Source of the DNA: Octopus vulgaris
Taxonomy: Eukaryota
DNA: 64,000 nt
NCBI GenBank assembly: GCA_951406725.2
Contig: OX597830.1
Location: 29,512,001-29,576,000 of the forward strand
Direction: 5' to 3'
In this document: piece by piece, positions 16,810 to 64,000 of the stretch
Layout of the letters: the number at the start of each line of letters is the position of its first letter
Position numbering within the stretch: position 1 is the first letter of the stretch
The notes under the pieces: generated by a model
The model's input: the letters and a program-made list of their open reading frames with translations, nothing else
Told to the model about the DNA's origin: nothing
Database searches by the model: none
Made by a program: the position numbers and the translations under genes

Positions 16810-17487
16810 CCTACCAGTTTGATAAGTAAGTATTAGGACTGTTGCCATTGCAACGAAGCTAAAAGACTCAGAGTAAAGTCACTTGGTGAAGTTTGTCCTT
16901 GAACCCTGCTGTGCATGTGCACTACATGTTAGCGTTCTAGCTCACTTCCACTGTTTACAGAAGTGCTTGGAAGGAAGCGTGTGATCGTCGCATTGGCCAT
17001 GACAGAGAAAGTTGTCATGGTGCCACCTGCTCAAACGCTTACGCAAAGTTGCAGAAAGTGCATGAAAGTGCATGTGTTTGAGCTGCACACAAGTGTACGA
17101 ATGTTTCTGACGTTTCCAAGATGGTCGAAAAAATGTCGTTACTGACAAACGTTCTGGAAGATGCCTAACCAGCAGAACTAATAAAAACGTCGCAGCTGTG
17201 CGTGCAGCTGTGAGGGTGAATCGTCGAATCACCATCTGTGAGTTATCAGAGAACGTGCAGATTGATTACGGTTCATTTCAGGCCGTTACCACTGAAGATT
17301 CGTTTATGAGACGCATGTCTGCCATGTTTGTACCGAAACGGCGTTCCTCTGACCAAAAGGTCACACGGGCTTCAGTGGCAAAATATCTTGATTGCATCGA
17401 GAACGATGAAAAACTGTTTCAAATCTTTGCATAGGCCTCTGAGCAGGTATCGCCAAGCTTCTGGCAAAATCTGGTGCAGATTCTTTG

Positions 17488-17549
<62 letters not shown>

Positions 17550-17744
17550 ATGGTCAATGCGACGACCACATGCTACACACATTCCTTCCAAGCAATGCTG
17601 CAAATAGCGGAAGTGAACTAGAACGTCAAATCTTAGTGCGCCTGCACAGAGGAGTTCAAGGTCAATCACTGCGAAGCGATTTATCCTGCGTGCTTTTGCC
17701 TCGTGACTATGGCAACAGTCCGGATACTTACTGATCAGACCACG
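16810..17744 (+). mobile_element. Non-autonomous mariner foldback element, copy A
   Basis: Transposase HTH fragment (NRRITICELSE...RRMSAMFVPK). Right TIR ggcaacagtccggatacttactgatcagaccacg followed by TA. Homologous to 52143-53013. Confidence 0.8.
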
Positions 17745-17782
17745 TATGTTCAGTGCCACGGAAAGTCGAAAATCTCAAGAAT

Positions 17783-17821
<39 letters not shown>

Positions 17822-18844
17822 TATACGTTCATATACACACATGCACACATATCCACTGATAATACCTTTTCTTTTCAGGTTTTAATAAAATATGTCATCT
17901 TGTATCTATGTATGTTTATATTACCAACGTCTGTGTATTGGCAGAATCTTTGAACCTTCGGAAAATGAATTCACTTATTCCTCTCAGTTGCTGTATTCTA
18001 AGATGCAGTTTTTTCATGGTTAACTTTACTTTTCATTTTGCAACATTAAAATAAAATAGCTGTGAAGTATTTGAATCGATGTGATCGAATAACACCACGC
18101 ATTGTGTATAAGTAAGAAATCGTAGCTTCTGTCTGTTGATTGCTTGAAACACGACGACCGGAGAAACACCTTTGTGATCATTCTACAGTATTTTCCGGTA
18201 TACATGTCCAAGTTTTCAAACCAAAAATCCCTCGCTTGCATTAATGATTAAAACCTTTCTCTCAGACATTTCTCATTTACACTCACAGAGCTCAGCCTAC
18301 AAGTCACAGACTGGCTAACATTCATTAACTTAATTCCAGGCAAATCATAGATAAAAACTAGCCATGTTGATCGATGTAATTTGCTAAAGTATTGACGTAT
18401 TACATACATTTTAATAACTTTTATTATAATTGTTTTATTTATAATTATTTTCTTTTAACCGTTTATATAATCACTTGTTTAAACCCGAAGGTATTTATTC
18501 CCGATGGAAAACTTTCTCAACATGATTAACCAACCATTACTTCTGTACTTAAAGTCATCAGTGAAAACCAAACAACGCCGACGCTATTTTAGCAATCGTC
18601 ATCATTATCACGAACCATAAACTCAGTTTTGCATCACCTACGCTTTTGTTTCGCGTCTGTATAACTGAATGACTAAAGGAGTTATGTTACCAGACTGTGA
18701 AAGGACCACGAAATGTTGTACGAAAGACAACGGCTATTAAATAAACAATTGGTATGTAGGTGTGTGTATGCATCTATACATACATATGCCTATACATACA
18801 TATACATATATACATATATACACATATATATTTATTTATATGTT

Positions 18845-18890
<46 letters not shown>

Positions 18891-18894
<4 letters not shown>

Positions 18895-19043
18895 TGTGTG
18901 GTAAGTAGCTTGCTATCCAACCACATGGTTCCGGGTTTCTGTCCCACTGCGTGGCATCTTGGGCAAGTGTCTTCTGCTATAGCCCCGGGCCGACCAATGC
19001 CTTGTGAGTGGATTTGGTAGACGGAAACTGAAAGAAGCCTGTC

Positions 19044-19091
<48 letters not shown>

Positions 19092-19303
19092 GTGTGTCTA
19101 TGTGTGTGTCTGTGTTTGTCTCCCTAGCATTGCTTGACAACCGATGCCAGTGTGTTTACGTCCCCGTCACTTAGCGGTTCGGCAAAAGAGACCTCTAGAA
19201 TAAGTACTGGGCTTACAAAAGAATAAGTCCCGGGGTCGATTTGCTCGACTAAAGGTGGTGCTCCAGCATGACCGCAGTCAAATGGCTGAAACAAGTAAAA
19301 GAG
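18891..19303 (+). mobile_element. tRNA-derived CORE-like SINE family A with internal (TA)n(TG)n
   Basis: tggctgtgtggtaag (A box), ggttccgggtt (B-box region), cttgggcaagtgtctt (CORE-like), tail ggtgctccagcatg..cagtcaaatggctgaaacaagtaaaagag. Many copies in the window. Confidence 0.88.
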
Positions 19304-19326
19304 TATATATATATATATATATATAT

Positions 19327-19380
<54 letters not shown>

Positions 19381-19568: not shown

Positions 19569-19754
19569 CTTGACTCTGTCCGTTATTTACATTGCGTTCC
19601 TATTTGTTTGTTTGTACGCATGTGTGTGGGTCAGTGTGTGTGTGCGTGTGTGTGCCTATGTATGCATGTACGTAAGTATGTATGCGTGTATGTATGTATG
19701 CAAGTGTGTGTATGTATACATGTGTATGTATGCATATGTATATGTGAATGTATG

Positions 19755-20393
19755 TTGCAGAAAATGTATGGAGAGAAATGTAGGAGCTGCACACAAGTGC
19801 ACGAGTGGTTCAGACGTTTCCAAGATGGCCGAATAAATGTCGATATTGACGAACGTTTGTGGTGACACCTAACTAGCAGAACTGATAAAAATATAGCAGA
19901 TGAGTGTGCAAGTGTGAGGGGAAATCCTCGAATCACCATCCTTGGTGAAGATGCAGGTTAGTGACGGTTCAGTTCATTATCATTGAAGTTTTGGGTATGA
20001 GACGCGTCTCTGCCACGTTTCCGTCAAAACTGCTTTCAGCTGACGAAAAGGACACTCGAATTTCAGTTGCACAAGATCCCTTTCATTTTTATCGAGAACG
20101 ATGAAAATTTTTTCAAAAGTTTGAGTAGGCTTCTTAGCAGGTATCGCCAAGCTTCTGGCAAAATTTTATGCAGAATCTCTGCTCAACTATCTCTGTCATG
20201 TTCAATGCGACGATCACACGCGAAACATATTCTTTCGACGTAATGTTGTAAACAGTGGAAGTCAGCGAGAATGTTAGAGATAAGTGCGCATGCATATCAG
20301 ATTTCAAGATCAATCTGTGCGAAGCGAATTTACGCTGTGTACATTAATTTCGTTACTATGGTAACAGTCCGGATACTTGTTGATCAGCCGTCG
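19755..20393 (+). mobile_element. Non-autonomous mariner foldback element, copy B (left end lost)
   Basis: VHEWFRRFQDGRINVDIDER matches the mariner HTH region. Right TIR ggtaacagtccggatacttgttgatcagccgtcg followed by TA. Confidence 0.8.
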
Positions 20394-20440
<47 letters not shown>

Positions 20441-27147: not shown

Positions 27148-27483
27148 TATTCTTAAAGGTCGAGTTCACTAAACGCTGAAGCTGTTGATGAATTTGGAAC
27201 AAATAGGCTTTTATATACAAATAAGAATAATTTCAAGTATGCAAAGTTCAAATTGTTGCTGAAAATAGTCGAAGTAAGTTATCTTTAGATTTTTGCTTTT
27301 TGATGTCCGGTTTAATGACGGGTTCCGTCGTGTTTATTTAATATGTAAGTTTTGAGGAATACAATTTTGCTTCGTTGAAATATTTGTTTAATTGAATGTA
27401 AACACGTTCACATGTTTGTATACCATTAAGCAATATATTACTATCCTATTTTGAAATACATACATATATACATACATGTATAT

Positions 27484-27588
<105 letters not shown>

Positions 27589-27593
27589 TATTT

Positions 27594-27758
27594 AGGCGCA
27601 GGAGTGGCTGTGTGGTAAGTAGCTTGCTAACCTACCACATGGTTCCAGGTTCACTCCACTGCGTGGCATCTTGGGCAAGTGTCTTCTGCTATAGCCCCGG
27701 GCCGACCAATACCTTGTGAGTGGATTTGGTAGACAGAAACTGAAAGAAGCCTGTCGTA

Positions 27759-27819
<61 letters not shown>

Positions 27820-28018
27820 TTGTGTTTGTCCCCGTAGCATCGCTTGACAACCAATGCTGGTGTGTTTACGTCCCCGTCACTTAGCGGCTCAGCAAAAGAG
27901 ACCGATATAATAAGTACTGGGCTTACAAAAATAAGTCCCGGGGTCGATTTGCTCGACTAAAGTCGGTGCTCCAGCATGGCTGCAGTCAAATGACTGAAAC
28001 AAGTAAAAGAGTAAAAGA

Positions 28019-28020
<2 letters not shown>
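27594..28020 (+). mobile_element. SINE family A, full length
   Basis: ggcgcaggagtggctgtgtggtaag head, internal microsatellite, tail ending in (gtaaaaga)n; embedded in (TA)n. Confidence 0.9.
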
Positions 28021-28059
<39 letters not shown>

Positions 28060-28064
<5 letters not shown>

Positions 28065-28320: not shown

Positions 28321-29677
28321 CTAGCATTATGACCCGGCGTTGCCGGGTCATATTGCTTGTGCATGTATATATGTGTATATATATGTGTACATCTATGTAT
28401 ATACATCTACACATCTTTATATATAAAAGTGAGGTTGTGTGCTGTCTGTCTCCTACGATTTAGATTCCTAACTGCTCCCACATTTTGCGGTGCAGTTTAA
28501 CCAAAACCGGGTATCTTATAGTCGGGTATTAGCGCGCGTCTACGATGAGTCTACGATTTTTTTAAAAATTTACCATCAATTTTTCCCATTTTTAATGCAT
28601 TTTTGGCATATATAAGGGAAGTAACTCTCTAAAAATTTATTATTAAATCTCAGAACGTAAAAAGCTACAGTAACAACCCCCTTTGTGGTTAGCCATATTG
28701 AGATGGCTATTATACTTTACATCTCTAAAAACGCTTATATAGTTATTTCCCTTACAAACCCGAGCAACGCCGGGCGATACTGCTTGTAAAATATAGAATA
28801 CAAAGTTATATCTTGATATCGCTAGTGATAACAATACTCAAAATATATAACAGACTGGAATTGTAGGCCCGCCTCTTGCAATTTCGATCAATTGTATCTT
28901 GTCCTCCCTCTTGTATAGAAGTGTGGCTACAATCCAGCCTACCTCTACTTCTGGGTGGGGGGGGAACATTTTAGATTTTTTATCCGGGACGTCCTACGTC
29001 CCAGATATAAAGGTAAAAATAAAATATTTCCACTTTGCAAGGTTCGAGTCGAGTACTCCCTTGAACGCTCCGTTAACTCGAACGTTGCTTCTATTGTGGC
29101 GAATTTACCGCCTCTGGTTAGATACTTGATATCTTTCATAGTCGCACCAAGACACTTTTCGATGGTGCTTTCTTTCAGGTGTTCAAATCTTTTTTTTTTT
29201 CTCTACATTGTGTACTTTATAGACAATATTTTCTTTAATTTAATGGACTATTCCATTTCTGCGCATTAATTTTATTTTAATTTATTCCTATTCATGTGAA
29301 GTCATTGATGCAATTTTATACCAATTGCTATTTTTACTTTTGTTATGTTACGATTATATTATACTTTAGTTTGATTTTAATCATTACTTACTACATATAA
29401 TTCAATTGTTATTATAATTTTTATTGTTAAAGTGAAAGTATCTGACATAAAATTGAGAAATGTTTTTGTTTCACTTTTGACACGTAATACTGAAATAGTG
29501 GAGAAGATATGATATTGCTATAGGCTCGCTCTAGGCAAGAAGTTGAACATTTTCTTTGCCCATGAAACTACATGGACCCTAAGTAAGGCATGTGTAAAAT
29601 TTGAATGAAATTGGTTGTGTAGTTCTCAAGTTTTAGGGAAACACACAGACCAGACAGACAGACACACACATTCTCAG

Positions 29678-29690
<13 letters not shown>
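28321..29690 (-). mobile_element. Helitron-like non-autonomous element ends (3' hairpin + CTAG at 28321; 5' end with GTCT repeats near 29690)
   Basis: Minus strand gcaatatgacccggcaacgccgggtcataatgCTAG. The other end reads tatatataaaaaactgagaatgtgtgtgtctgtctg...aaccaatttcattcaaatttt. That the two ends belong to one element is inferred. Confidence 0.5.
28414..28786 (+). mobile_element. Non-autonomous Helitron-like element, ~373 bp
   Basis: Starts TC-tttatatataaaa, then gtctgtc. Ends with hairpin cccgagcaacgccggg and CTTG (a variant of CTRR). Inserted between A and T with no TSD. Confidence 0.7.
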
Positions 29691-29756
<66 letters not shown>

Positions 29757-29769
29757 CAGATATATATAT

Positions 29770-29819
<50 letters not shown>

Positions 29820-29820
<1 letters not shown>

Positions 29821-30550
29821 TTCCAAATGCATATTGAATCTGGTGATAAAATGCAGACGACTAACTGGATGGATTCTCCGAACTTTCAGAACAAGAGAGA
29901 AGGAGACACTGATGGTCCTATGGAAAACATTCGTCCTCAGCCGCTTGGACTACTGCTCCCAACTTTGGTCACCACACAATATAAAACAAACAGCAGAACT
30001 CGAAGCAACTCAGAGAAGCTATACAAAGAAAATCGTCTCAATGCAAAATGTCAGCTACTGGGAAAGACTGAAGGTATTAAACCTCTTCTCCCTGGAGCGG
30101 AGGCGGGAGAGATATGCAGTGATATACATCTGGAAAATCCTGGAGGGTCTTATCCCAAACTTTGGCATTCAAAGTTACTCCAACCGCAGAACGGGGCGCC
30201 ACTGCGTGGTGCCAAGGATTCCAACATCACCATCAAAATATAGGTCCAGATACTGCAACAGCTTGGGTTTCAGAGGACCACAGCTCTTTAACATCCTCCC
30301 TAAATGCCTGAGAGACTTACATGGTGTGGATGTGGGTTTCTTTAAAACTAAACTGGATCTCTTCTTGTTGGGAGTCCCAGATGAACCTACCTCACGACAG
30401 GAGACACGGATGCGGGCAGCAGCATCGAACTCCCTTGTTGATCAAGTGCCACGTATCAGGGGTGGATTCACAAACTAGTGTAGCTCATTCAGCGGTGGTG
30501 CCCCAGCATGGCCGCGGCCTTCGGGCTAAAACATTTTTAAGGATTTAAGG

Positions 30551-32095: not shown

Positions 32096-34671
32096 AATCG
32101 TATAGAATTTTCTAAATATTTTAGATGTTGAGGCACTTTACGGTGGAGGCTTTCTGAACACAAATAGAAAAGATAGAAATTATGGGAAATTCTCACCTAT
32201 TACTGACACCTTAGAGCTTTCGATTTTAGTGCCTTGACCTTATAAAATTCAATTTATATTTATTTGTCTTCTATTCTACGTCGTCTGATTTGAATACATA
32301 TCTTTTCCAACGCCATAAATATGCCGATTCAAAATTCATGCTTTTTATATTGTACATACATTGATATCTATCTAAACTCTTTTTTTTTTGGGACTTTTGT
32401 GTGTTTTGGCGAACAAAACCCAGAAAACATGGCTCTATCTCTCTGTGTCCCTTTTCTCCCTTACCCGCCCTCTCTCCGTCAATGGCTGTGTGTGTGACAT
32501 ACACACATACATATATGGGAATTCAAAACTTGTCATCTGCTGGATGCTTTCATTTTCCCTTCTATTATAAGAATTGCTACTAAGATGTGACTTGGGTGAG
32601 AAACGTGCGTCTCAGAATCATCGCCACCCACGCAAAATACCAAAGAGAGGAAGAGAAACACAATTTGTTAAACCTAGATCTGCATTCAGAACGTAATCTC
32701 CAACATAGCTAGCAATTTGCTATTCCTTGCAATATAAACATCTCCTTGCCAAACAAATACCACAAACATTTTAACAACGGCAGCATTGTGACTATCCGTA
32801 GCTTTCTTAATAGCATCGTTTCTTAGATCTCACAGCTTAAGTAAACACTGTTATTCCCTACACCAAATTCTTGTCTACAATTTAAGAATCATTCAGAAAT
32901 ACCCAACTAAATGATCCTGCCTTTCAAAGTGGATGATATATAGGGAAGTAATACTGATGCTGATGGATTTGAATGTAATTTAGTTGGTCATTGAGACAAC
33001 AGGTTCAACATAGGATAGAACCAGAGGGCAATAGAAATATGTCTGTAAACAAAGCTAATTTCACACATGTATCTCATTTTGTGTGGAAACGAAGGGATAT
33101 TATAATGGAATACGATCCCACAAAATAGATTATTCGGAACGTCCAAATATAAATAATTTGAGCAAGAATATGTAATTGAGGCTTATCTAAGATATTCCTA
33201 ATTCTGCAATAATCATCAGGATTTTTCTATTAACACGCTAGTGTTTATATCATGCACTCGTCTAATGGCAATATATTTTCGGTAATTTTTCCCAGCAGCT
33301 GATGGGAACATTTCGTTTGTTAGGTAATTCCACTGCAATCTCATCTTTCTTTAATAAAATGCTATACTCAATCGTTTGTTGCACAAAAATATATTATAAG
33401 AATACCAAGCTCTAATACTCTCAATTATCCTAGAAATCAGTAACAAGAAATCAATGGCCAAGTCAAAACATGAAATGTAACCCTTAATTCTGGCTTTGAT
33501 AAGGAGGAGTTTTTGATGTATATGTTATATACATTTATGTATGTGTGTATGTGTAAATGTGTGTGTGTATTTTCTGCTCATCAAAGAGTTTATATTTTTT
33601 CTCTTTAATTCGTTTGAGAGAAACTGTATATTTAAACAAACTCAGTCCTCAAAACGCCAGTGAATGCCTGACATATGGAGTATAAATGTATGGTTAAAAT
33701 GTAACACATAATGATTATGATAATAATCTGTACTGCGTTAAAAGTAATCAGGTTCATGAGACAGCAATTATGAACATACACGACCTACTTTTTTTCCAGT
33801 TCCTGAAGTATTTTCAGCGAAATGATCAAGTGTATAATCATTTGTTTTTCATAAACCATGGTTTAGATATTTATAATTTTGTTTTGCATTGTTTAATTAG
33901 AGCACAACCGCTATGCAAGTTTACCACATTGAAACAAACGTAGCATCTACTTTTAATTGCGTACATATTATCGAACACTATTTATTAACTAGCTAATATA
34001 CATTTTAAAGTAAAGAGACTGAAGCACTATTTTACACTGTATACACGAAGGTACTAAACCAAGCAGACAGAAATACAAGTACAGGTACACCTCAATATCT
34101 TTATCTTCGTATATAAGGTCCCTACAGATTTTTAACAAAATTTACATTGAACATTATTTCACACGTGAAGAATTACTTCTATAAGAAGGAAAAACCTTGC
34201 AAAAATGCATCTTAGAATAGTTTATAATGTTACTTCCTACGAACAAATTTCAACGGACAGACACTGGACGCACAAAGCCCTAGTTTTTCTTAAATTTATT
34301 AATATTTTAATACGTACTTTCAATTTTTCACACTCCCTATTCTCCATCTATCCTCAAACATATAAGTTATATATAATATTATCAATAAGGTATGTCTCTT
34401 ACCCGTTGATAACAGTTAAGGAGCTAGAAACGTCAATGTTTTGGAATCCTAGAGGATGGCATCAGTGGACAGATGTGGTGCTTTCATACCTGTTTACCAT
34501 AAGAGAAAAAAATGTCTCCACAGTAGCTGCAGTAACTTTACGATTTTGCAGTTGAAATATGTAACAAGCATGTTTTAACGAAACTATTGCTTGGCACTAA
34601 TATTACGGTAATATATGTGTGTGTGTGTGTTTGTGTGTTTGTGTGTTTGTGTGTGTGTGTATTTATATATC

Positions 34672-35084
34672 TTATACTCTTTACTCTTTACTCTTTTACT
34701 CTTTTACTTGTTTCAGTCATTTGACTGCGGCCATGCTGGAGCACCGCCTTTAGTCGAGCAAATCGACCCCGGGACTTATTTTTTGTAAGCCCAGTACTTA
34801 TTCCATCGATCTCTTTTGCCGAACCGCTAAGTGACGGGGACGTAAACACACCAGCATCAGTTGTCAAGCAATGCTAGGGGGACAAACATACACACACACA
34901 CATATATATATACATATATACGACAGGCTTCTTTCAGTTTCCGTCTACCAAATCCACTCACAAGGCATTGGTCGGCCCGGGGCTATAGCAGAAGACACTT
35001 GCCCAAGATACCACGCAGTGGAACTGAACCCAGAACCATGTGGTTGGTTAGCAAGCTACTTACCACACAGCCACTCCTGCGCCT
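34672..35084 (-). mobile_element. SINE family A, full length
   Basis: Reverse complement of the family A sequence, with a (tactcttt)n tail. Confidence 0.9.
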
Positions 35085-35497
35085 TATATATATTTTGTCT
35101 TTTAATTGTTCCAATAATTAAACTGCGACCATGCTCGGATATATTTATGTACATATCCTGTCGTTAAAACCATTTCTTGCAAATGTACCACTATAATGGG
35201 GAGCGGTGATATTGAAGATCTATGTGTCCTGACGTAGACAAAGTAACTTATATTGATTATTTGTGACTTGATTCTTGATTACACCACGTGAGCTCAGCTG
35301 ACGAATATAGGGAAGACTAAATTCTTAGAGGCCATTTTGATTGTAATTTCAGGTTTCCACACTGTAACGCATATTAACTATTAACTATTTCTAATATAAC
35401 TTATCTTAACCTGGTGATCTTACGCATACAAATTTGTATTTAAAAGGTGCCTATCTATCTATCTACCTATCTATCTAACTATCTATCTACTTATCTA

Positions 35498-37437: not shown

Positions 37438-37752
37438 GTGAGGTGGCATGGACAACATCTTGAACTTTCTGCAGCGGCATACTGAAGCCTTGAACGCTAA
37501 GAGTAGAGACGTCTGCGTCAGGTTTATATCAGGCATTCATTTATTTGTTTATTTAAGGCGCCCCCAAATATCGTAATATTAAGTACGACAGTTCTGAGAT
37601 AGCTAGACTAGAATACAATTGATTATAAATCTATTCTGTTAGAATAAACATGTGCTTGTTCCAAAATTACAACTTCGGTATAGTCAGTGTCCATTTTCAC
37701 GAGACTTTCAAGTCATATTTAAGGAAACTCTGACATATTTTGTACACTGATA

Positions 37753-37797
<45 letters not shown>

Positions 37798-37906
37798 CAT
37801 AATAAATAATATTAGGGTAATAAGAATTATGGAAATTATTATTACTACTGGCCTAGCACAAGAGAAAATTTAGTCAATGTGTTTTGATGTACACGATATA
37901 TGTGTA

Positions 37907-38312
37907 CATGCAGGAGTGGCTGTGTGGTAAGTAGCTTGTTTACCAACCACATGGTTCCGGGTTCAGTCCCACTGCGTTACACCTTGGGCAATTGTCTTCT
38001 ACTATAGCCTCGGGCTGACCAAAGCCTTGTGAGTGGATTTGGTAGACGGAAACTGAAAGAAGCCCGTCGTATATATGTATATGTATATATATAAGCGTGT
38101 GTGTGTTTGTGTGTCTGTGTTTGACTCCCTAGCATTGCTTGACAACCGATGCTGGTGTGTTTATGTCCCCGTTACTTAGTGCTTCGGCAAAAGAGACCGA
38201 TAGAATAAGTACTGGGCTTACAAAAGAATAAGTCCCGGGGTCGAGTTGCTCGATTAAAGGTGGTGCTCCAGCATGGCCGCAGTCAAATGACAGAAACAAG
38301 TAAAAGAGTAAA
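37907..38312 (+). mobile_element. SINE family A, full length
   Basis: Head, CORE-like block and tail as in the other copies. Confidence 0.9.
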
Positions 38313-39179
38313 TGATATATATATATATATATAGAAAGGAAATGCATAGAAATTAATTTCTGAAATCTTAATACAAACTTACAAACTTATACTAACTCAC
38401 GACAGAATGTCTTAAACATTGAAATTTATTGGAAACGCAGAATTTACACAAAAGAAAATAAAAGAAGCCCATAAAAACGTTATGCAGAAAACAAGCATAA
38501 CCTAATAAAATTGTATAGGGTAATTTATATATAATTTTTCTTTTCATAAGGTGTAACAATGAAACAAATGTTACATTGTTAATATTTGGGAGTGCCGCAG
38601 CTAAATAGTAAAACACCAGACAAAAACCTGTCCCGCATCATACAATGATTTATTATTAAGAAGCTGGAAAAAAAAAAAACTAGAGCAAACTTGATATATT
38701 TTCAGTCTTATTGCTCTAGTTATTTTTGCCTTTTTAATTAGAAAAATGTTTCTATTTATTTCTTTTCTCTTTCTACATACATAAATTCACGTAACAGTAC
38801 GTGGTGAATTGGTAAACACGTTAATTCATCGACAGAAATTATTTATTTATTTGTGCGCTATTTATTTGGGCTCTTTGAGTGCAAACCGAGCTATGGTCAT
38901 CTTTTAGAGGTTGGTTTAGAGGTATCAGTTCGACGCAGTAGATTAACGGACCTTCGTCCGTAAAGATGTCAGACCGAATGCCTTTTCTGACTGCTAGTAT
39001 TCTGGGTTCAAATCCCAGAATAGCTGGTACAAACAGGTAGAGAGGTTACACCGCAATTCTGCAAAGGAATTGCTCCAGCATTGAGACAATTGGAATCCTT
39101 CTAATGGTTACATCCATTTTTAAGAAACTTCTATTTTATCAAAGAGATCTGTATCATGTTGACGTAAATCTTTCTCTTA

Positions 39180-39752: not shown

Positions 39753-40099
39753 AATCATTGTCTTGTAAAATTCAGTGTAGCATACCACCTTCTTAAAATA
39801 CCTGGCAGAGATTTGCAAGAGGATAAGCTTCTATCTTCAGCAGATAGTTTTTCTTGTGTTTGTACGTGAGTGTAAATCTGGAAAAACACTGATTCTTCAG
39901 ACATTAGAAAATATAGCTATTCTCTTCTCCGGAGAATATCATATCATTTTAAAGGAATGGGTCAAGTTTCGATTTGAATTCAATATGTTACATGTAGAAA
40001 ATTCATCGGTCCACTTAAGTGCTCATTTTGTCAGGTAGTTCGGTTGAAATATCTCTCTCTCTCTCTCTCAAACTCTCTCTCTCCCTTCTGTATGTATAT

Positions 40100-40690
40100 A
40101 CTCTTTACTCTTTTACTCTTTTAATTGTTTCAGTCATTTGACTGCGGCCATGCTGGATCACCGCCTTTATTCGAGCAAATCGAACCCAGGACTTATTCTT
40201 GGTAAGGCTAGTACTTATTCTATCGGTCTCTTTTTCCGAACCGCTAATTTACGGGGACGTAAACACACCAGCATCTGTTGTCAAGTGATGTTGGGGGACA
40301 AACAGAGACACACAAACACACACACATACATACACACACACAGATATATATATACATATATACGAGGTGCTTTTTTCAGTTTCCTTCTACCAAATCCACT
40401 CAGAAGGCTTTACTCGGCCCGAGGCTATGTGTGCGTGTATGTGTGTGTATGTGCATATTTCTGTTCGTGTGTCTTTCTTTGACACCCCCACCCACTCAAC
40501 TCAACATCGCTTGACAACCGATGCTTGTGTATTTACGTCCCCGTAACTTCGCGGTTCGGCAAAAGGGACCGATTGAATACGTACCAGGCTTAAAAAAGAA
40601 TACGTCTTGGGGTCAGTGTACTCGAATAAGGTGGTGCTCATGCATGGTTGCAGTCAATTTACTGAAACACGTAAAGTAATAAAAGAAAAA
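40100..40690. mobile_element. Two partial SINE A copies in inverted orientation
   Basis: Minus-strand copy 40100-40428 and plus-strand 3' half ~40500-40690. Confidence 0.7.
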
Positions 40691-42818: not shown

Positions 42819-42915
<97 letters not shown>

Positions 42916-42929
42916 GTGTATGTGTGTGT

Positions 42930-43274
<345 letters not shown>

Positions 43275-48699: not shown

Positions 48700-50230
48700 T
48701 GGTCGGATTGTGCAACCTCAGATAATCTGTATTTTACGTAGGTTAGTTGCCATTCCCAAAAGTGTTATCTTTTGCAATATCTAATTCTGAGACAGATTCC
48801 GTTTGTGTTAAATTGTTTCTGAGGGTTTTTCATCTGCGATCCAAGTGCTCCAATTACAATTGGTACCATTCTTGCTTTCATATTCCACCTCCTCACGTCA
48901 CCTATTTTCAAGTCTGCGTATTTTGCGATTTTATCGTTTTCATTATCATTGATATAATGATCTCTTGGGTTAGCTACACCAATCGACAAACCCCTCGTCC
49001 AAGAACATTTATACACCCAAGTTATGTCTGGCTCTGTATGTTCAAGAATTCCATATATCTGGCTCTTTATGCTCATGAATTCCATATTCAAGAATTCCAT
49101 ATGTATTCCATATGTCAATTCCACAAGTATTTCCCCGTTTGGGTTTCTGGAACCGTCAAATTTTGTCCTGGTACCTTTTTGTATTGCTTGGAAATTCATA
49201 TTCTCTGCATAAAGACCAATGCAGGTGTATGTATACTTTGCCGTAATGATGTTAGCATTCTCTCAAGCATGAAACAAACAATCATGGTGCTTGTCACAAT
49301 TTCCATCCTCTTGCATGACCTACACTAATTTGTTTCATCTTGGATATACATATCACTTATCGAGTTTTAGCTCAGTATCTGATTCCGAGTAACCGTACAC
49401 AACTTACTGTCTCTCTGTATTACGATCACCTCTTGTCAACCAATTATATGAGGATTCTGCGTTTACTTCCTTCGTATGTCTTTTAAATTGACCGTGTTCA
49501 CTTTCTCAGCTTGCAAACTGTAATTTTGTTTTGCTTTCAATACTTTGAATACATAAGCGTCTACTTTTGGTAAATTACTTTCAAAGTTCTCTATCCAAAG
49601 TTGACTAGCCAAGAAAAATATCCAAGGGCATGCTTTCTCAAGTCACACAATCTTTCACACTTTAAGTCCTTCTCCTACGTCTCACGGCGTATATAGCCTT
49701 AAAACATTTGCCATTGTCAAGCATTTTCTTTCGCGTTAACCTATCTATCTTATCTATCATTTTGTTAGTTCGATTTAAAATAGCAGCACTTTATTTAATA
49801 AACACTACAACCAAGACTTTGGCAGCTGTAATCAAGTTCTCATTCAATTTCGTTTTCAGTAGCATTTCTAACTTCTGTAGACAGAATTGCTTCACATTTC
49901 ACTTCATCTCATTCGGAACTTTGGCCATCTCCACAATCCTCAGATACTTGTATCCACTATCCTCAAGGAAACCTATTAAATCTCTATCAGGTAACTGAAT
50001 CCTACAACCATGTACGCATCTAGATATTTTCATATCAGGGTTGCACACTTTGCAATACCAAACTCCATTCTAATCTCTTTACAGTGAACAGTTTCGAGCA
50101 GTGATTGAAACTGTGATTCATTCTTGCCGAAGAATTTCAGAGTGATTTATAAGTCTGGTTTTTAAGTCTGTGTTTTATCATGTGTTCACTTGTGTTTCTC
50201 GTAAGGTACCATGACAATCCCAAAGACTAA
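48700..50230 (-). mobile_element. Decayed R4/Dong-like non-LTR retrotransposon (RT C-half, zinc-knuckle region, restriction-like endonuclease)
   Basis: Minus-strand MEFGIAKCATL, GYKYL, KVYIHLHWSLC and DKIAKYADLK..RRW...MVPIVIGALG. Its 3' end lies next to trinucleotide tracts at 48400-48640. Confidence 0.8.
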
Positions 50231-51763: not shown

Positions 51764-52142
51764 TATCTATGTGTATATATACATAGATAGATAGAGACAG
51801 ACGGGCAGACAGACAGATAGATATAGATTATTGTTAAACATGAATATTTTTGACAGTAACTTTGAACTTTCGGCTCGCTAAACCGTCATCGGACTGTGTT
51901 GCACTGAAGTTAATGTTGACTTCATATTGTCTCTGTTGAGTTACAATCATTCTTGAGTTTGTGGCTCTAAGTGTTGCGGAATGGTAAATTAGCTTATAGG
52001 GTAGGCTGTGACAGAGAGGTCTTCGGGTCATATTATTGTTTAGAATTTATTCATGAACATAGAATTTGCTTCTAGCTGTGGATGCTTAGGAGTTCGCCTT
52101 AAGATCATGGGATAGTTATTGAGTGATTCAGAAATGAAATTA

Positions 52143-53013
52143 CGTGGTCTGATCAACAAGTATCCGGACTGTTGTCATAGTAACGAAGCTAAAGCATGGA
52201 GAGTAAAACTGCTTGGCACAGATTGATCTTGAACGCTGTTATGTGCTCGCACTAAGATTTACCGTTGTTTGCAGCAGTGCTTGGAAGGATGGTTGTGGTG
52301 TGTGATCGTCGCATTGAACATGACAGCAATGTGAGCAGAGATTCTGCATCAAATTTTACCAAAAGCTTAGTGACACCTGCTCAGAGGACTACACAAAATT
52401 TGCAAAAAGGTTTCATCGTACTCGACACAATCAAAGAGAGTTCCTGCAAATGAAACCTGAGTGTCATTTTGGTCAGCTGGAAGCAATTTTAGTACAAACT
52501 CGGCAGATACACGTCTTATAACTAAATCTTCAGTGATACTGGACTGAACTGAACCGTAACTAATCTGCACATCCTCTGATAACTCACGGGTTGTGATTCA
52601 ACGATTTCTCCTCACAGCCGCACGCACATATGCGATATTTTTCTCAGTTGTGCTGATTGCAGGTCTCCCACAACGCTCGTCTCTATCGACTTTTTCCGGC
52701 CACCTTGGAAAACTCTCACCCATTCATACACTTTTGTGCAGCGCCTACACTTCTCTCCAGATACTTTCTGCAAATTTCTGTAGGTCTCTGAGCAGTTATC
52801 GCAATAACAACGTTGTTATGGTCAATGCGGCGATCACACGCTACACGTTTTCATTCCAAGCACTTCTGTAAACAGCGGAATTGAGCTACAACGTTAAAAC
52901 TTAGTTCGCATGTACAGCTAAGTACAAAGTCAATCTTTGCCAAGCGGCTTTACTCTGTGTACTTTAGCTTTGTTACTATGGCAACAGGCCTGATACTTAT
53001 TGATCAGACCTCG
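52143..53013. mobile_element. Non-autonomous mariner foldback element, copy C (complete, 871 bp, TA TSD)
   Basis: TA|cgtggtctgatcaacaagtatccggactgttg ... caacaggcctgatacttattgatcagacctcg|TA. Transposase N-terminal fragments lie on both strands. Confidence 0.9.
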
Positions 53014-53304
53014 TAGGCAGAGGAAGTACCAGTAGTTTTAAATACTTTTAGTTTTATTAGATTTAATTTTTTGCGTTGACAACATAAATCACCAAGTTTC
53101 AAATTATAGTCCAGTATTTAAAAACTTCGTAATTAGGTGGGTCAACATTTTGTAATGGAATTTTTTAAGTATGTAAGTTAGATGGTTGTTTTAGATGTTC
53201 AATTTCTTTATTGACTGTTCTTGTTATTGTTTAAGGTATTCCCCGTCTATATTTGGAGGATACGGGTTACTAGTAGGATATGTCGCGGTGTTGTTAGTAT
53301 ACAC

Positions 53305-53525
53305 TTTTACTTTTTTCAGTAATTGGACTGCGGCCATGCTGGAGCACCACCTTTTGGTCGAGCAAATCGACCCCAGGACTTATTCTTTGCAAGCCTAGTA
53401 CATATTCTATCGGTCTCTTGCCGAACTGATAAGTTACGGGGAAGTAAAAACACCACAAACAGTTGTCAAGCGATGTTGGGAAGACAAACACAGGCACACA
53501 AACATATACACACACATACATACAA

Positions 53526-53579
<54 letters not shown>

Positions 53580-53589
53580 TTGTATGTAA

Positions 53590-53622
<33 letters not shown>

Positions 53623-53740
53623 CAACAGGCTTCTTTCAGTTTCCGTCAACCAAAGACACTTGCCCAAGATGATACGCAGTGGGAACGAACCCGGAACCAT
53701 GTGGTTGGTAGTAAGCTATTTACCACACATCCACTCCTGC
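53305..53740 (-). mobile_element. SINE family A with internal deletion
   Basis: Reverse-complement tail and head are both recognisable. Confidence 0.8.
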
Positions 53741-59061: not shown

Positions 59062-59102
59062 TATTCAACCGGTTTTCGTCAATGTATGACTTGTCAAGAA
59101 TA
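59062..59102 (-). ncRNA. Minimal hammerhead variant with U3-A8 covariation
   Basis: uauuc-UUGACAA-guca-uacau-ugac-GAAA-accgg-UU-gaaua. Stem I 5 bp, stem II 4 bp, palindrome AACCGGUU; one extra A after GAAA. Confidence 0.65.
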
Positions 59103-59739: not shown

Positions 59740-60003
59740 TCAACGAGGAGTTTGCATATTAAGTTGTGTTTGGAATTTTTCAATAAAGAGATTCTCCTTG
59801 TTAATTCTCTCCTGTGTGGTGATCCCGTCTTTACATTGGTAGAAGGGGAATATATAGAATTTGGGGTTTAAGTCTTTGGCACATGAGTCTAAGTGGTCAC
59901 TCAGTGGAATTTGTCGGTATTCCGGGAGATTTATTTGTTCTTTATGCACCGTTACTCGTTTACGTAACGGGAGACTCGTTTGTCCCACATAATTATGTTG
60001 GCA
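59740..60003 (-). pseudogene. Penelope-type GIY-YIG endonuclease C-terminal fragment
   Basis: CQHNYVGQTSLPLRKRVTVHK...HL...ERINKENLFIEKFQTQLN matches C..YIGxT..LxxRxxxH...R..E..I....LN. Confidence 0.85.
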
Positions 60004-61583: not shown

Positions 61584-62671
61584 TCTATATCTCCCTCTCT
61601 CTCTATATATATATATATGTATATGTATGTATATATTGAAAAAAATATTAACTAAAGAATAAATTCCAACAATCATGATAAGTATTTCTTTTCTTTTTGT
61701 TTTGTTCTTATATTTAATATTGTTTTTGTTTCACACTCTTCATTCTCTACTTCGTTCCCAGAGGTACCAGTTCCCTCATGCAGTAAAGTAAAAAAGAAAT
61801 GCTCTAATAATGTAATGTCAACAACACAATTGTATTAACAGTCAAATTAATGCTCTCTCAGCATTATGTCGCGTAGTAGTCTCCCATTGGGATCTGCGCT
61901 TTATAATTAAACTACATACCAAGACATACTAGATCCGTCATATCTATATTATTTAGACCCTTACGTTACTAAGTCCTTAGCGCTTGAATAGCAAATTCCC
62001 CAAACATTTTAGTTATTTTGGAGAGATGTCTTTTGTTTCAGTAGTATCGTACTCTCTACCGCTGAATGTAAATGAATTGCTTTGGCTTTCCTGCCTTTTT
62101 ACACTTGAAGGTAAAAGAAAACTCTAGTGATATCATTCATTTCTAAGTCAATATGAAACTTGCTTCTCTTACTCAGTTGAGTTGCAATGGATCTTTTCAT
62201 CATATTTCAAATCTCTTTGCCGATGTTTGACTGCTAAACGATATATCGACACTTATCATCTGTGTTTCGGCATATACCATAATCTTTGATTTTTTTAAAA
62301 AATAGATCACATTCGATAATATTTGATATAATATTAAATATATTCAATTAATGATGTGAGCTAAATGAATCGTTAGCATAACTTTTCCAAATTTCCGAAA
62401 GAGTGAATTGCGTTATGATGCTATTTTTCTCACAGGGGTTTGAAGCTGCGCTTAGGTACATCACATTCTTTTTCAACATTCCTTGTTCTTATGCAGTTCC
62501 TGTTATTCTCTCCAACGGACCCTACTATACTGCGTAGTCGACAAAATAATAAACAATGCGCATGCGATGAATTAAAAACATAAAATGGCGACAATCTACC
62601 CATCACACTATCTATCTATCTATCTATCTATCTATATATCTATCTATCTATATATATATATATATATATAT

Positions 62672-63576
62672 ATTGCTAAGATGATCTGGTTCTTGACTGA
62701 TGACTGAGGGCTTCGAATGTCCCGTCCTGTGGTTCTTGTGTCGTCTCTGTGGCGTTTCATGTTCTTGTCCATGTCTGTAATTATTTTTACTGTTTACCTA
62801 TATAATCGGCGGCTACGTATCCACAATTGTCCTTATACGATAAGTATATTTTTTCTCAAGCATTGATACGACTCTTAATCTGTCTCTTTCTCTCTCTCTC
62901 TCTCCTCCCTTATTCCCCTTCCTTTCTTTCCCTCTCCATCCGTCTTCCCCCCCCTTCTACGTTTCTCTATCTCTCTCACCTCCAGCCCCCTCGATCTGTC
63001 TCTTTCTTCTCCTCCCTCGTCCACCTTCTCTCTCTTTTCATCTGTCCCTTTCTCCTGTCTTTTGTTCTCACGTGACCGCTAGCCGCTGTTGAGCGCTCTT
63101 TTCGTTCCAGCAGCCGCCGAAGCAACACGTATTTGTTCGTCTCCCTGCGGCCATTAGGCACAACTTCATAAGCCAGCCCCATACTCAACTCGTCCTGTCG
63201 AAAGACCCTTGTCCTACGTCCTGGTTTTGTTTTGTTGTTTATTATTTTTTTATTTTTACCGTTATTGTTTTTACGTTTTTGTATTCTTATTGGTGTCACG
63301 TATTCTGTATTTTTGTTCGTGTACTTCGTTCGTTTTCCGTCCTCGTGTTGTATACATTCGAAGGTTTCTTCCAGGGGATCTAATGCGCTTGGCTTAGATT
63401 TCCCTTGGCGGGCTGCCCACATCGGAGCAATCTCAAGATTAATCAGCCGAAATTGCTAAGATGATCTGGTTCTTGACTGATGACTGAGGGCTTCGAATGT
63501 CCCGTCCTGTGGTTCTTGTGTCGTCTCTGTGGCGTTTCATGTTCTTGTCCATGTCTGTAATTATTTTTACTGTTTA

Positions 63577-63584
<8 letters not shown>
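62672..63584 (+). mobile_element. 780-bp non-coding unit with a 133-bp terminal direct repeat, inserted in (TA)n (PLE pLTR- or retrozyme-like)
   Basis: 62672-62804 and 63452-63584 are identical (offset 780). No TG..CA ends, no TIR and no credible ORF. Confidence 0.8.
63417..63487 (+). ncRNA. Candidate non-circularly permuted hammerhead ribozyme
   Basis: agcaaUC-ucaaga ... ucag-cc-GAAA-uugcu ... ucuuga-CUGAUGA-cuga. All three stems are complementary, but the strand order is not that of types I, II or III. Confidence 0.55.
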
Positions 63585-63668
<84 letters not shown>

Positions 63669-63720
63669 TAAATATATATATATATATAAATATATATATA
63701 TATAAATATATATATTTATA

Positions 63721-64000
63721 TGCGCAGGAGTGGCTGTGTGGTAAGTAGCTTGCTAACCAACCACATGGTTCCGGGTTCAGTCCCACTGCGTGGCATCTTG
63801 AGCAAGTGTCTTCTGCTATAGCCCCGGGCCGACCAATGCCTTGTGAGTGGATTTGGTAGACGGAAACTGAAAGAAGCCTGTCGTACATATGTATATATAT
63901 ATATGTATCTGTGTGTGTTTGTGTGTCTGTGTTTGTCCCCCTACCATTGCTTGACTACCGATGCTGGTGTGTTTACGTCCCCGTCACTTAGCGGTTCGGC
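63721..64000 (+). mobile_element. SINE family A, running off the window end
   Basis: gcgcaggagtggctgtgtggtaag head through gtcacttagcggttcggc. Confidence 0.9.

Follow-up and report, generated by a model that had tools for sequence, protein, structure and literature searches.

The 64,000-nt stretch of Octopus vulgaris DNA analysed here (GCA_951406725.2, contig OX597830.1, positions 29,512,001 to 29,576,000 of the forward strand; hereafter the window) holds a short unit that lies in a (TA)n microsatellite, is preceded by a truncated copy of itself and contains the core letters of a hammerhead ribozyme (HHR) in an unusual order. This raises two questions, namely what kind of element the unit is and whether its ribozyme strands can come together within a single copy. 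A 5'-truncated copy in front of a full copy is the normal insertion form of Penelope-like elements (PLEs), and among these the Naiads are described, in the available text of PMC8557442, as preferring (TA)n, forming partial tandems and having no canonical HHR, with 'HHR_core' and 'HHR_half_core' cases only. For PLE hammerheads, which work as dimers, the accessible part of PMC4209133 proposes copying of more than one unit from cut or circular RNA. A further class, types SGC and CSG, was validated by Eckert 2023 as co-transcriptionally cleaving ribozymes, with a helix beside stem I in type SGC; in the available sections of that paper (PMC10085705), CUGANGA and the stem II strand are assumed to be inseparable and no example in the genome of a known organism is reported.

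Self-comparison of the window recovered the exact 133-bp direct repeat with a period of 780 described in the initial annotation (62672-62804 = 63452-63584), of which 126 bp (62673-62798) are specific to the repeat, given that its first A and its last six letters (TATATA) merge with the TA tracts. The order is thus (TA)n, a 126-bp 3' fragment, TATATA, a 774-nt unit and again (TA)n:

62609-62672, no strand: (TATC)n(TA)n microsatellite, the 5' target tract (sequence).
62673-62798, + strand: 5'-truncated upstream copy, pseudo-LTR-like, with the 3' strand of stem III (IIIb), the 3' strand of the bridging helix, the 3' strand of stem I (Ib) and CUGAUGA, and without the 5' strand of stem II (IIa), the cleavage strand and GAAA (repeat comparison).
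62799-62804, + strand: TATATA joining the two copies, presumably element tail or target remnant (repeat comparison).
62805-63578, + strand: 774-nt non-coding unit of a high-copy family, in which the read comparison began after the first 116 nt (reads, frames, composition).
63579-63662, no strand: (TA)n microsatellite, the 3' target tract (sequence).

The flanking (TA)n, the non-coding character and the likeness to a PLE pseudo-LTR unit that had been noted earlier all hold, the last in the form of a partial tandem of a hammerhead-bearing unit. Pyrimidines make up 69% of the unit, its longest ATG-started frame on the + strand has 27 codons, a 159-codon stop-to-stop frame on the - strand has no Pfam match, and no further copy was found within the 64 kb. 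It has no open reading frame with the N-terminal GIY-YIG, CxC and reverse transcriptase (RT) of an autonomous Naiad; insertion in (TA)n, seen here at one locus, and a partial tandem with a 5'-truncated upstream copy are both what a non-autonomous Naiad derivative is expected to show. As the initial annotation had it, the upstream copy carries the CUGAUGA segment and neither the GAAA nor the cleavage segment: it contains UCUUGA-CUGAUGA-CUGA, lacks GAAA, the cleavage strand and IIa, and begins immediately behind GAAA, at 20 nt on the 3' side of the equivalent of the predicted cut. Genomic copies retain 146 nt 3' of that cut.

The family is abundant. Eighteen of the 24 sequencing runs listed, spread over organisms A, B and C, contain at least half of the unit's words, and in all four runs aligned, contigs align on one unit period (3805, 8368, 1879 and 582 contigs). 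These alignments required 80% identity and left out the first 116 nt, so that the tandem junction and the 5' end lie outside the comparison. Two metatranscriptome runs contained 0.08 of the unit's words; since run X6 was labelled as RNA only by guess, it is not counted as evidence of transcription. Because the family is abundant in three organisms, the repeat is neither an assembly slip nor a target-site duplication, the 126 bp being element sequence.

An order-free hammerhead descriptor, run over both strands of the 64 kb, found the site at 63411-63483 only:

63411-63415, + strand: 5' strand of stem II (10.1-10.5, GGCUG), detached from CUGAUGA (descriptor, family variation).
63417-63423, + strand: 5' strand of the bridging helix (CCACAUC; previously taken as an extended stem III) (descriptor, shuffle test).
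63424-63426, + strand: non-bulged strand of a kink-turn motif (3n G, 2n G, 1n A) (sequence against the kink-turn definition in the available text of PMC5579392).
63427-63432, + strand: 5' strand of stem III and AUC triplet, cut predicted after C63432 (descriptor).
63433-63438, + strand: 5' strand of stem I (UCAAGA) (descriptor).
63444-63456, + strand: 3' strand of stem II (CAGCC), GAAA core and 3' strand of stem III (descriptor).
63457-63462, + strand: 3-nt kink-turn loop 63457-59 (two of three positions variable) followed by 1b G, 2b A and 3b U (sequence, family variation).
63463-63469, + strand: 3' strand of the bridging helix (GAUCUGG) (descriptor, shuffle test).
63471-63483, + strand: 3' strand of stem I (UCUUGA) and CUGAUGA core (descriptor).
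63490-63496, + strand: pairs with 63422-28 in a predicted competing inactive rod (folding prediction).

All hammerhead core letters (CUGANGA, GAAA and UH at 63431-32) are present, in the order cleavage site AUC, GAAA 63449-52, CUGAUGA 63477-83, and stems I, II and III abut the core with 6, 5 and 5-6 bp, provided that a strand of stem II is supplied from upstream. The full strand order reads IIa - bridge(b) - IIIa - AUC - Ia - IIb - GAAA - IIIb - bridge(g) - Ib - CUGAUGA. This is S-G-C order rather than the circularly permuted connectivity of types I, II and III in the Rfam models, and two further features of type SGC are found, namely a short (5-nt) linker between Ia and IIb, and a helix (63417-23/63463-69) that bridges stems I and II at 1 nt from each. 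The pairing of CCACAUC with GAUCUGG at 6 of 7 positions, ending 1 nt before stem I, had been correctly recognized in the initial annotation; its identity had not, as it is the bridge between stems I and II and not an extension of stem III. Block C, CUGANGA followed by its stem II strand within 0-2 nt, is broken (0 bp contiguous): the letters after CUGAUGA pair 0 bp in register, and the partner of CAGCC is GGCUG 63411-15, 73 nt upstream. The A9-G10.1 link is therefore severed, and, since the distal helix corresponds to Eckert's bridging helix, the whole can be described as an SGC/CSG ring reopened between A9 and G10.1. Shared with the type-SGC/CSG ribozymes, as far as the available text of PMC10085705 describes them, are the S-G-C block order, the short Ia-IIb linker, the bridging helix over the tops of stems I and II and the double pseudoknot; here, in contrast, block C is broken, the cleavage strand comes after IIa and a bridge strand, and bridge and stem III are connected by a kink-turn. 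Judging from these letters, the unit likely encodes a self-cutting RNA whose hammerhead parts are strung in a re-threaded order.

The kink-turn motif between bridge and stem III consists of a canonical helix ending in G63427-C63456, a 3-nt bulge (63457-59) and then the pairs G63460.A63426, A63461.G63425 and U63462.G63424. As a sequence motif it agrees with the standard (box C/D) kink-turn of the accessible part of PMC5579392 in the C helix, the 3-nt loop, G1b.A1n, A2b.G2n and the G at -1n, and differs in lying inside the stem III of a ribozyme and in having U.G at 3b.3n. Within the family the loop varies and the G.A pairs are constant.

Standard searches and folding gave little. Rfam 15 returned no match at gathering level for the window, and in E-value mode TA-driven chance matches only; nor did any of 20 related loci match at gathering level. 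Pseudoknot-free folding assigned near-zero probability to stems I and II and the bridge of the window copy, an inactive rod (-24 kcal/mol) won once the 3' flank 63484-63500 was present, the ribozyme region was no more stable than shuffles (z 0.01 and 0.40), and MAFFT produced no alignment of six ribozymes.

Variation among family members was more informative. Between 63405 and 63490, 11 positions vary at 5% or more, none of them among the 48 positions of the core, stems I-III and the G.A pairs (P=5e-5, in a test that leans on alignments requiring 80% identity); two of the 11 lie in the kink-turn loop, five in the bridging helix and two directly after the core on its 3' side. No variant at 5% or more occurs in the catalytic letters CUGANGA, GAAA and UH except at N7. 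At 63420, G predominates (44-89% of depth in 4 runs), which makes the bridge pair at 7 of 7 positions, and T, a mismatch, accounts for 11-53%; the C.C mismatch in the bridge of the window copy is a minority letter, as is its U at position 1 of the kink-turn loop. The bridge variants are unphased, some are mismatches and 63423 C>T may be CpG decay. Depth peaks at 63423-63474, at 2-6 times the preceding bin; this is summed depth and not copy number, and the excess indicates that further families share the ribozyme stretch.

The same architecture recurs behind Naiad-type RT genes, in their 3' UTRs and with other letters. An RT-motif scan gave at least 120 metagenome loci (about 840 estimated, flanks for 80) and 47 loci from genome collections; regions of 300 nt or more were available for 108 of the 167, which group into 74 clusters at 70% identity. 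A descriptor of the split layout scored 20 or more in 11 of the 108 on the sense strand, in none on the antisense strand and in none of 20 shuffles. Anchors were then chosen from the core and stems I and III only, which avoids circularity, and this search gave nine loci plus the window, with a contiguous stem II of 0-1 bp in nine of the ten and 3 bp in one. Against 500 shuffles, an upstream stem II strand followed by a bridging helix within 0-2 nt was significant in the window (p=0.02), in L127, L130, L156 and L168 (0.002 each) and in L273 (0.004), and Fisher's method over six lineages gave 2e-8, with L168, L132, L152 and L184 left out as relatives. These values supersede a test of the upstream stem without energies (p 0.005-0.35), which was too lenient. 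In four loci of the L132 family the tight cage was no better than in shuffles (p 0.12-0.28).

The order-free descriptor matched eight of the 108 regions in sense, none in antisense and none in five shuffles. Four of the eight are split and four are of type CSG, and between them the gap from A9 to 10.1 is 0, 1, 29 or 30 nt or the link is severed: in the CSG-type L279 and L259 the two are 0 and 1 nt apart, L247 and L269 have 29-30 nt inserted, and L130, L156, L168 and L273 are severed as in the window. In the remaining 100 regions, many of which end short of the 3' end, this descriptor found no match; evidently some Naiads use something other than such hammerheads. Whole contigs for five descriptor loci have GIY-YIG N-terminal to the RT, which is the Naiad order; the L273 contig shows it, and the related loci L288-L292 carry the full autonomous-Naiad frame with N-terminal GIY-YIG, CxC and RT. 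Across these unrelated lineages the catalytic letters CUGANGA, GAAA and UH are kept. Viral contigs served as a negative control: the kink-turn form of the pattern gave 120 motif matches, none with all four helices and the best being chance matches in apparent coding sequence, and a stricter RT pattern found no viral loci.

The scan also gave several observations in their own right. L132, L140, L152, L172, L184 and L198 form one RT family with an S-G-C hammerhead and no tight cage; by eye, a longer link before stem I in the L132 family pairs with letters 3' of CUGAUGA, possibly a further variant. L259, L279, L247, L133 and L269 have type-CSG hammerheads in Naiad 3' UTRs, three of them with a hairpin between A9 and 10.1, and the two DNA-only CSG sequences of Eckert may belong to PLEs. 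Of the 47 loci from genome collections (L241-L287), most are Naiad/Chlamys-type RTs inside prokaryote assemblies, likely host contamination, and two of these contigs are tandem arrays with a period of about 3.8 kb. The 5' parts of L290 and L291 contain apparent coding sequence upstream of the Naiad frame, in or beside the repeat, possibly a second ORF.

Published Naiads point the same way. In the available subset of the 54 consensi of PMC8557442, inspected by eye, the split layout with different stem letters is seen in nine (Bfor, Chem-3, Amil, Aacu with mismatches, Anas, Plae, one in part 19, Obim and Ovul), and the 3' ends of Naiad_Obim and Naiad_Ovul have a 5-bp stem III and a kink-turn as in the window. 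Five nematode or spider records look like type CSG, two arthropod ones (Ppla and Lpol) look SGC-like with a short contiguous stem II, and nine displayed ends (CGi, Pmar, Omin, Adux, Esco, Chem-1, Chem-4, Movir-1 and Dst-3) show no such ribozyme or another layout. The unit thus resembles the published Naiads, above all Naiad_Obim and Naiad_Ovul, in (TA)n insertion, partial tandem, a core near the 3' end and, by eye, the split layout with kink-turn; it differs in having no ORF, in its length (774 nt against 3.4-4.4 kb) and in sharing architecture with autonomous Naiads without a sequence match. BLAST of the unit gave no matches in the 167 loci, hence no autonomous partner by sequence, and a motif comparison with the available Naiad consensi gave no informative match.

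A GIY-YIG remnant lies 2.7 kb from the unit in the window. Protein searches with it return only PLEs with a C-terminal endonuclease, and it is therefore not the unit's partner. It belongs to a 5'-truncated canonical PLE remnant in (TA)n (59740-60002 and about 59062-59102, - strand), whose C-terminal GIY-YIG is 54-60% identical to P0001-P0003 and whose 3' UTR, by eye, holds a decayed minimal type I hammerhead with a palindromic stem III. Overall the window has the look of a repeat-rich invertebrate genome. Also in TA tracts is an abundant SINE-like family, which resembles an octopus SINE (63720-64000, with copies near 18770-19380, 27460-28060, 34660-35090, 37750-38340, 40090-40430, 42820-43230 and 53300-53740). 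Tc1/mariner-like remnants are found at 613-1005 (HTH_Tnp_Tc3_2, E 1.4e-5) and, alike, at 16810-17752, 19754-20396 and 52135-53017. A frame at 48765-49262 (- strand), which has no Pfam match, resembles the end of a restriction-like endonuclease, and one at 29609-30478 (+ strand) resembles a LINE RT end.

Can the strands meet within one copy? The initial annotation held that the CUGAUGA strand, starting 1 nt from the hairpin, probably could not reach the core in cis. Three observations speak against this. The spacer between bridge and stem I is 0-2 nt in five unrelated RT loci, so that the 1-nt spacing of the window is a conserved design; the SGC ribozymes in the available sections of PMC10085705 also have a helix beside stem I; and a kink closes a crude rigid-helix model. 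In this model, which uses approximate A-form geometry and loose core restraints and covers the window, a straight control, L156 and one published variant, the residual for the window was 12 once the kink-turn was included, falling to 5 when one pair was frayed, whereas a control with a straight 15-bp stem III did not close (555). The steric worry is thus sound for a straight helix and falls away for the kinked geometry of the window, for whose family folding in cis is feasible. L156 was half closed (residual 50), and a nearly straight published variant with a 15-bp stem did not close in cis (185).

Such straight variants are where a domain-swapped dimer would apply above all. Each copy would then fold only the long hairpin of stem III and bridge, and its tails (IIa and Ib-CUGAUGA) would attach, in head-to-tail fashion, to the loop of another whole copy; cutting would then take two full ribozymes, on a tandem transcript or on two RNAs, and spare monomers. 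The swap works at any length of stem III, canonical PLE hammerheads do work as dimers (PMC4209133, available part), and the 904-bp repeats of one related locus contain two complete ribozymes. Yet most variants have a kink-turn, a bulge or a three-way junction at the turning point, the crude model of the window closes in cis, and the validated SGC/CSG ribozymes were assayed as cis-cleaving during transcription, according to the accessible text of PMC10085705. We regard the dimer as unlikely, while giving it some weight.

It might also be that the conserved fold now serves the Naiad RT, or a 15.5K-type kink-turn protein, in binding or priming and has stopped cutting, or that the window copy has decayed. 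This would fit the 146 nt that genomic copies keep 3' of the cut, the predicted competing rod and the in vitro behaviour of the Poseidon PLE, whose RT starts inside the template and whose insertion does not need HHR cleavage (PMC11167929, available text). The retention of CUGANGA, GAAA and UH across lineages, with N7 as the only variable letter in the family, argues against it, and we hold it to be improbable.

Very improbable, in our estimate, is the switch proposed in the initial annotation, by which the truncated upstream repeat or a second RNA would supply Ib-CUGAUGA and only terminally redundant or circular transcripts would be cut. The upstream copy does have Ib and CUGAUGA and starts right after GAAA, and a straight stem III could not have brought the strand in cis; however, it lacks the stem II strand GGCUG (IIa) and therefore cannot complete a ribozyme, the 0-2-nt spacing is kept in unrelated loci, and the kink removes the steric objection. 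The edges of related repeats are also scattered, at 460 nt 5' (L292), 8 nt 5' (L291) and 70 nt 3' (L290) of the cut, the last two being contig starts. An ordinary type-SGC hammerhead that takes stem II from letters 3' of CUGAUGA (either CUGA 63484-87, bulged by 2 nt, or GGCU 63489-92, set off by a 5-nt insert) is scarcely credible, given that, although both 4-bp pairings are possible and the two arthropod Naiads look contiguous by eye in the available records, nothing pairs in register, 63484 and 63488 vary, loose-end consensi replace the stretch behind 63480, GGCUG/CAGCC has no family variant at 5% or more, and homologous layouts take the upstream strand.

The reading that we prefer, and consider probable though well short of certain, is that the unit is a non-coding, high-copy repeat in a (TA)n partial tandem, likely a non-autonomous PLE moved by a Naiad RT, with a complete set of hammerhead strands predicted to fold in one copy and to cut after C63432. 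Mobilization by a Naiad is inferred from the target, the tandem form and the shared ribozyme architecture. Under this cis reading, the kink-turn would turn the bridging helix back along the core, so that the top of the helix would cap stems I and II through 1-nt links. Cleavage would be slow or partial, owing to the AUC triplet, the double pseudoknot and the competing rod once 63484-63500 has been made; AUC hammerheads are prone to misfold during transcription, according to the accessible part of PMC1636495. Under slow cutting, much of the RNA would still carry the 146 nt on the 3' side of the cut, which are required for every genomic copy. At a nicked (TA)n, reverse transcription of a tandem or circularized transcript may start at the 3' end of the unit and run a little beyond one unit length, and the 126-bp upstream copy would be an ordinary 5'-truncated PLE overrun and not a part of the ribozyme. 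With its start 20 nt 3' of the cut, the repeat is compatible with a linear template that has been cut; in L292, however, a whole ribozyme lies in the upstream repeat, whose start is 460 nt 5' of the cut, so that repeat edges do not track the ribozyme and one locus cannot decide the form of the template.

We know of no active hammerhead that is severed at A9-G10.1, which counts against the preferred reading. In the papers that our search covered (most subscription papers lie outside its coverage), we found none on non-circular hammerheads in PLEs or animals, on an A9-G10.1-severed hammerhead or on a natural kink-turn hammerhead, and 'type-SGC' appears in Eckert 2023 only. For other permutations, Eckert is the only source cited in the available text of a 2026 NAR paper, and the available part of a 2026 preprint on animal non-LTR retrozymes (bioRxiv 10.64898/2026.07.22.740005) uses type I descriptors only. 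The unit resembles these retrozymes in being a non-coding, hammerhead-bearing, PLE-derived repeat, and its ribozyme order is not theirs. With canonical PLE hammerheads it shares a hammerhead inside a PLE repeat and the proposed processing of tandem RNA and more-than-unit copying; theirs, in contrast, have C-G-S order and a tiny palindromic stem III and act as dimers, whereas here stem III is long and the connectivity is another. On comparative evidence, which is strong, the unit is a putative hammerhead variant in a probable non-autonomous, Naiad-type element.

More tentatively, and with the odds against it, Naiads across animals could be the natural home of non-circular hammerheads (CSG, SGC and the A9-G10.1-open form); in this family, the kink-turn cage might be switched by a host kink-turn protein (15.5K/Snu13) or by pairing between two copies, and tandem RNA might be cut to 780-nt monomers, or to circles, that the Naiad RT copies. 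The 3' ends of Naiad-1_Movir and Naiad-4_Chem (sequences in PMC8557442, File S5) resemble twister ribozymes, which would suggest that Naiads swap ribozyme classes.

If the preferred reading is right, the natural hammerhead connectivities would rise to seven, the newcomer splitting a block that had been held indivisible, and the non-circular class would gain its first examples from chromosomes and from animals. One clade would then hold an evolutionary series in which the A9-10.1 gap is 0, 1 or about 30 nt with a hairpin, or the link is severed. The kink-turn is offered as an answer to Eckert's geometric puzzle of how to join stem III to the bridging helix, and inside a self-cleaving RNA it would be a ready handle for control by proteins. 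For the family itself, the split layout would explain why Naiads, including the 'half-core' cases, seemed to be without a hammerhead, and, if the RNA does cut itself, it would overturn the published view of Naiads as elements without hammerheads.
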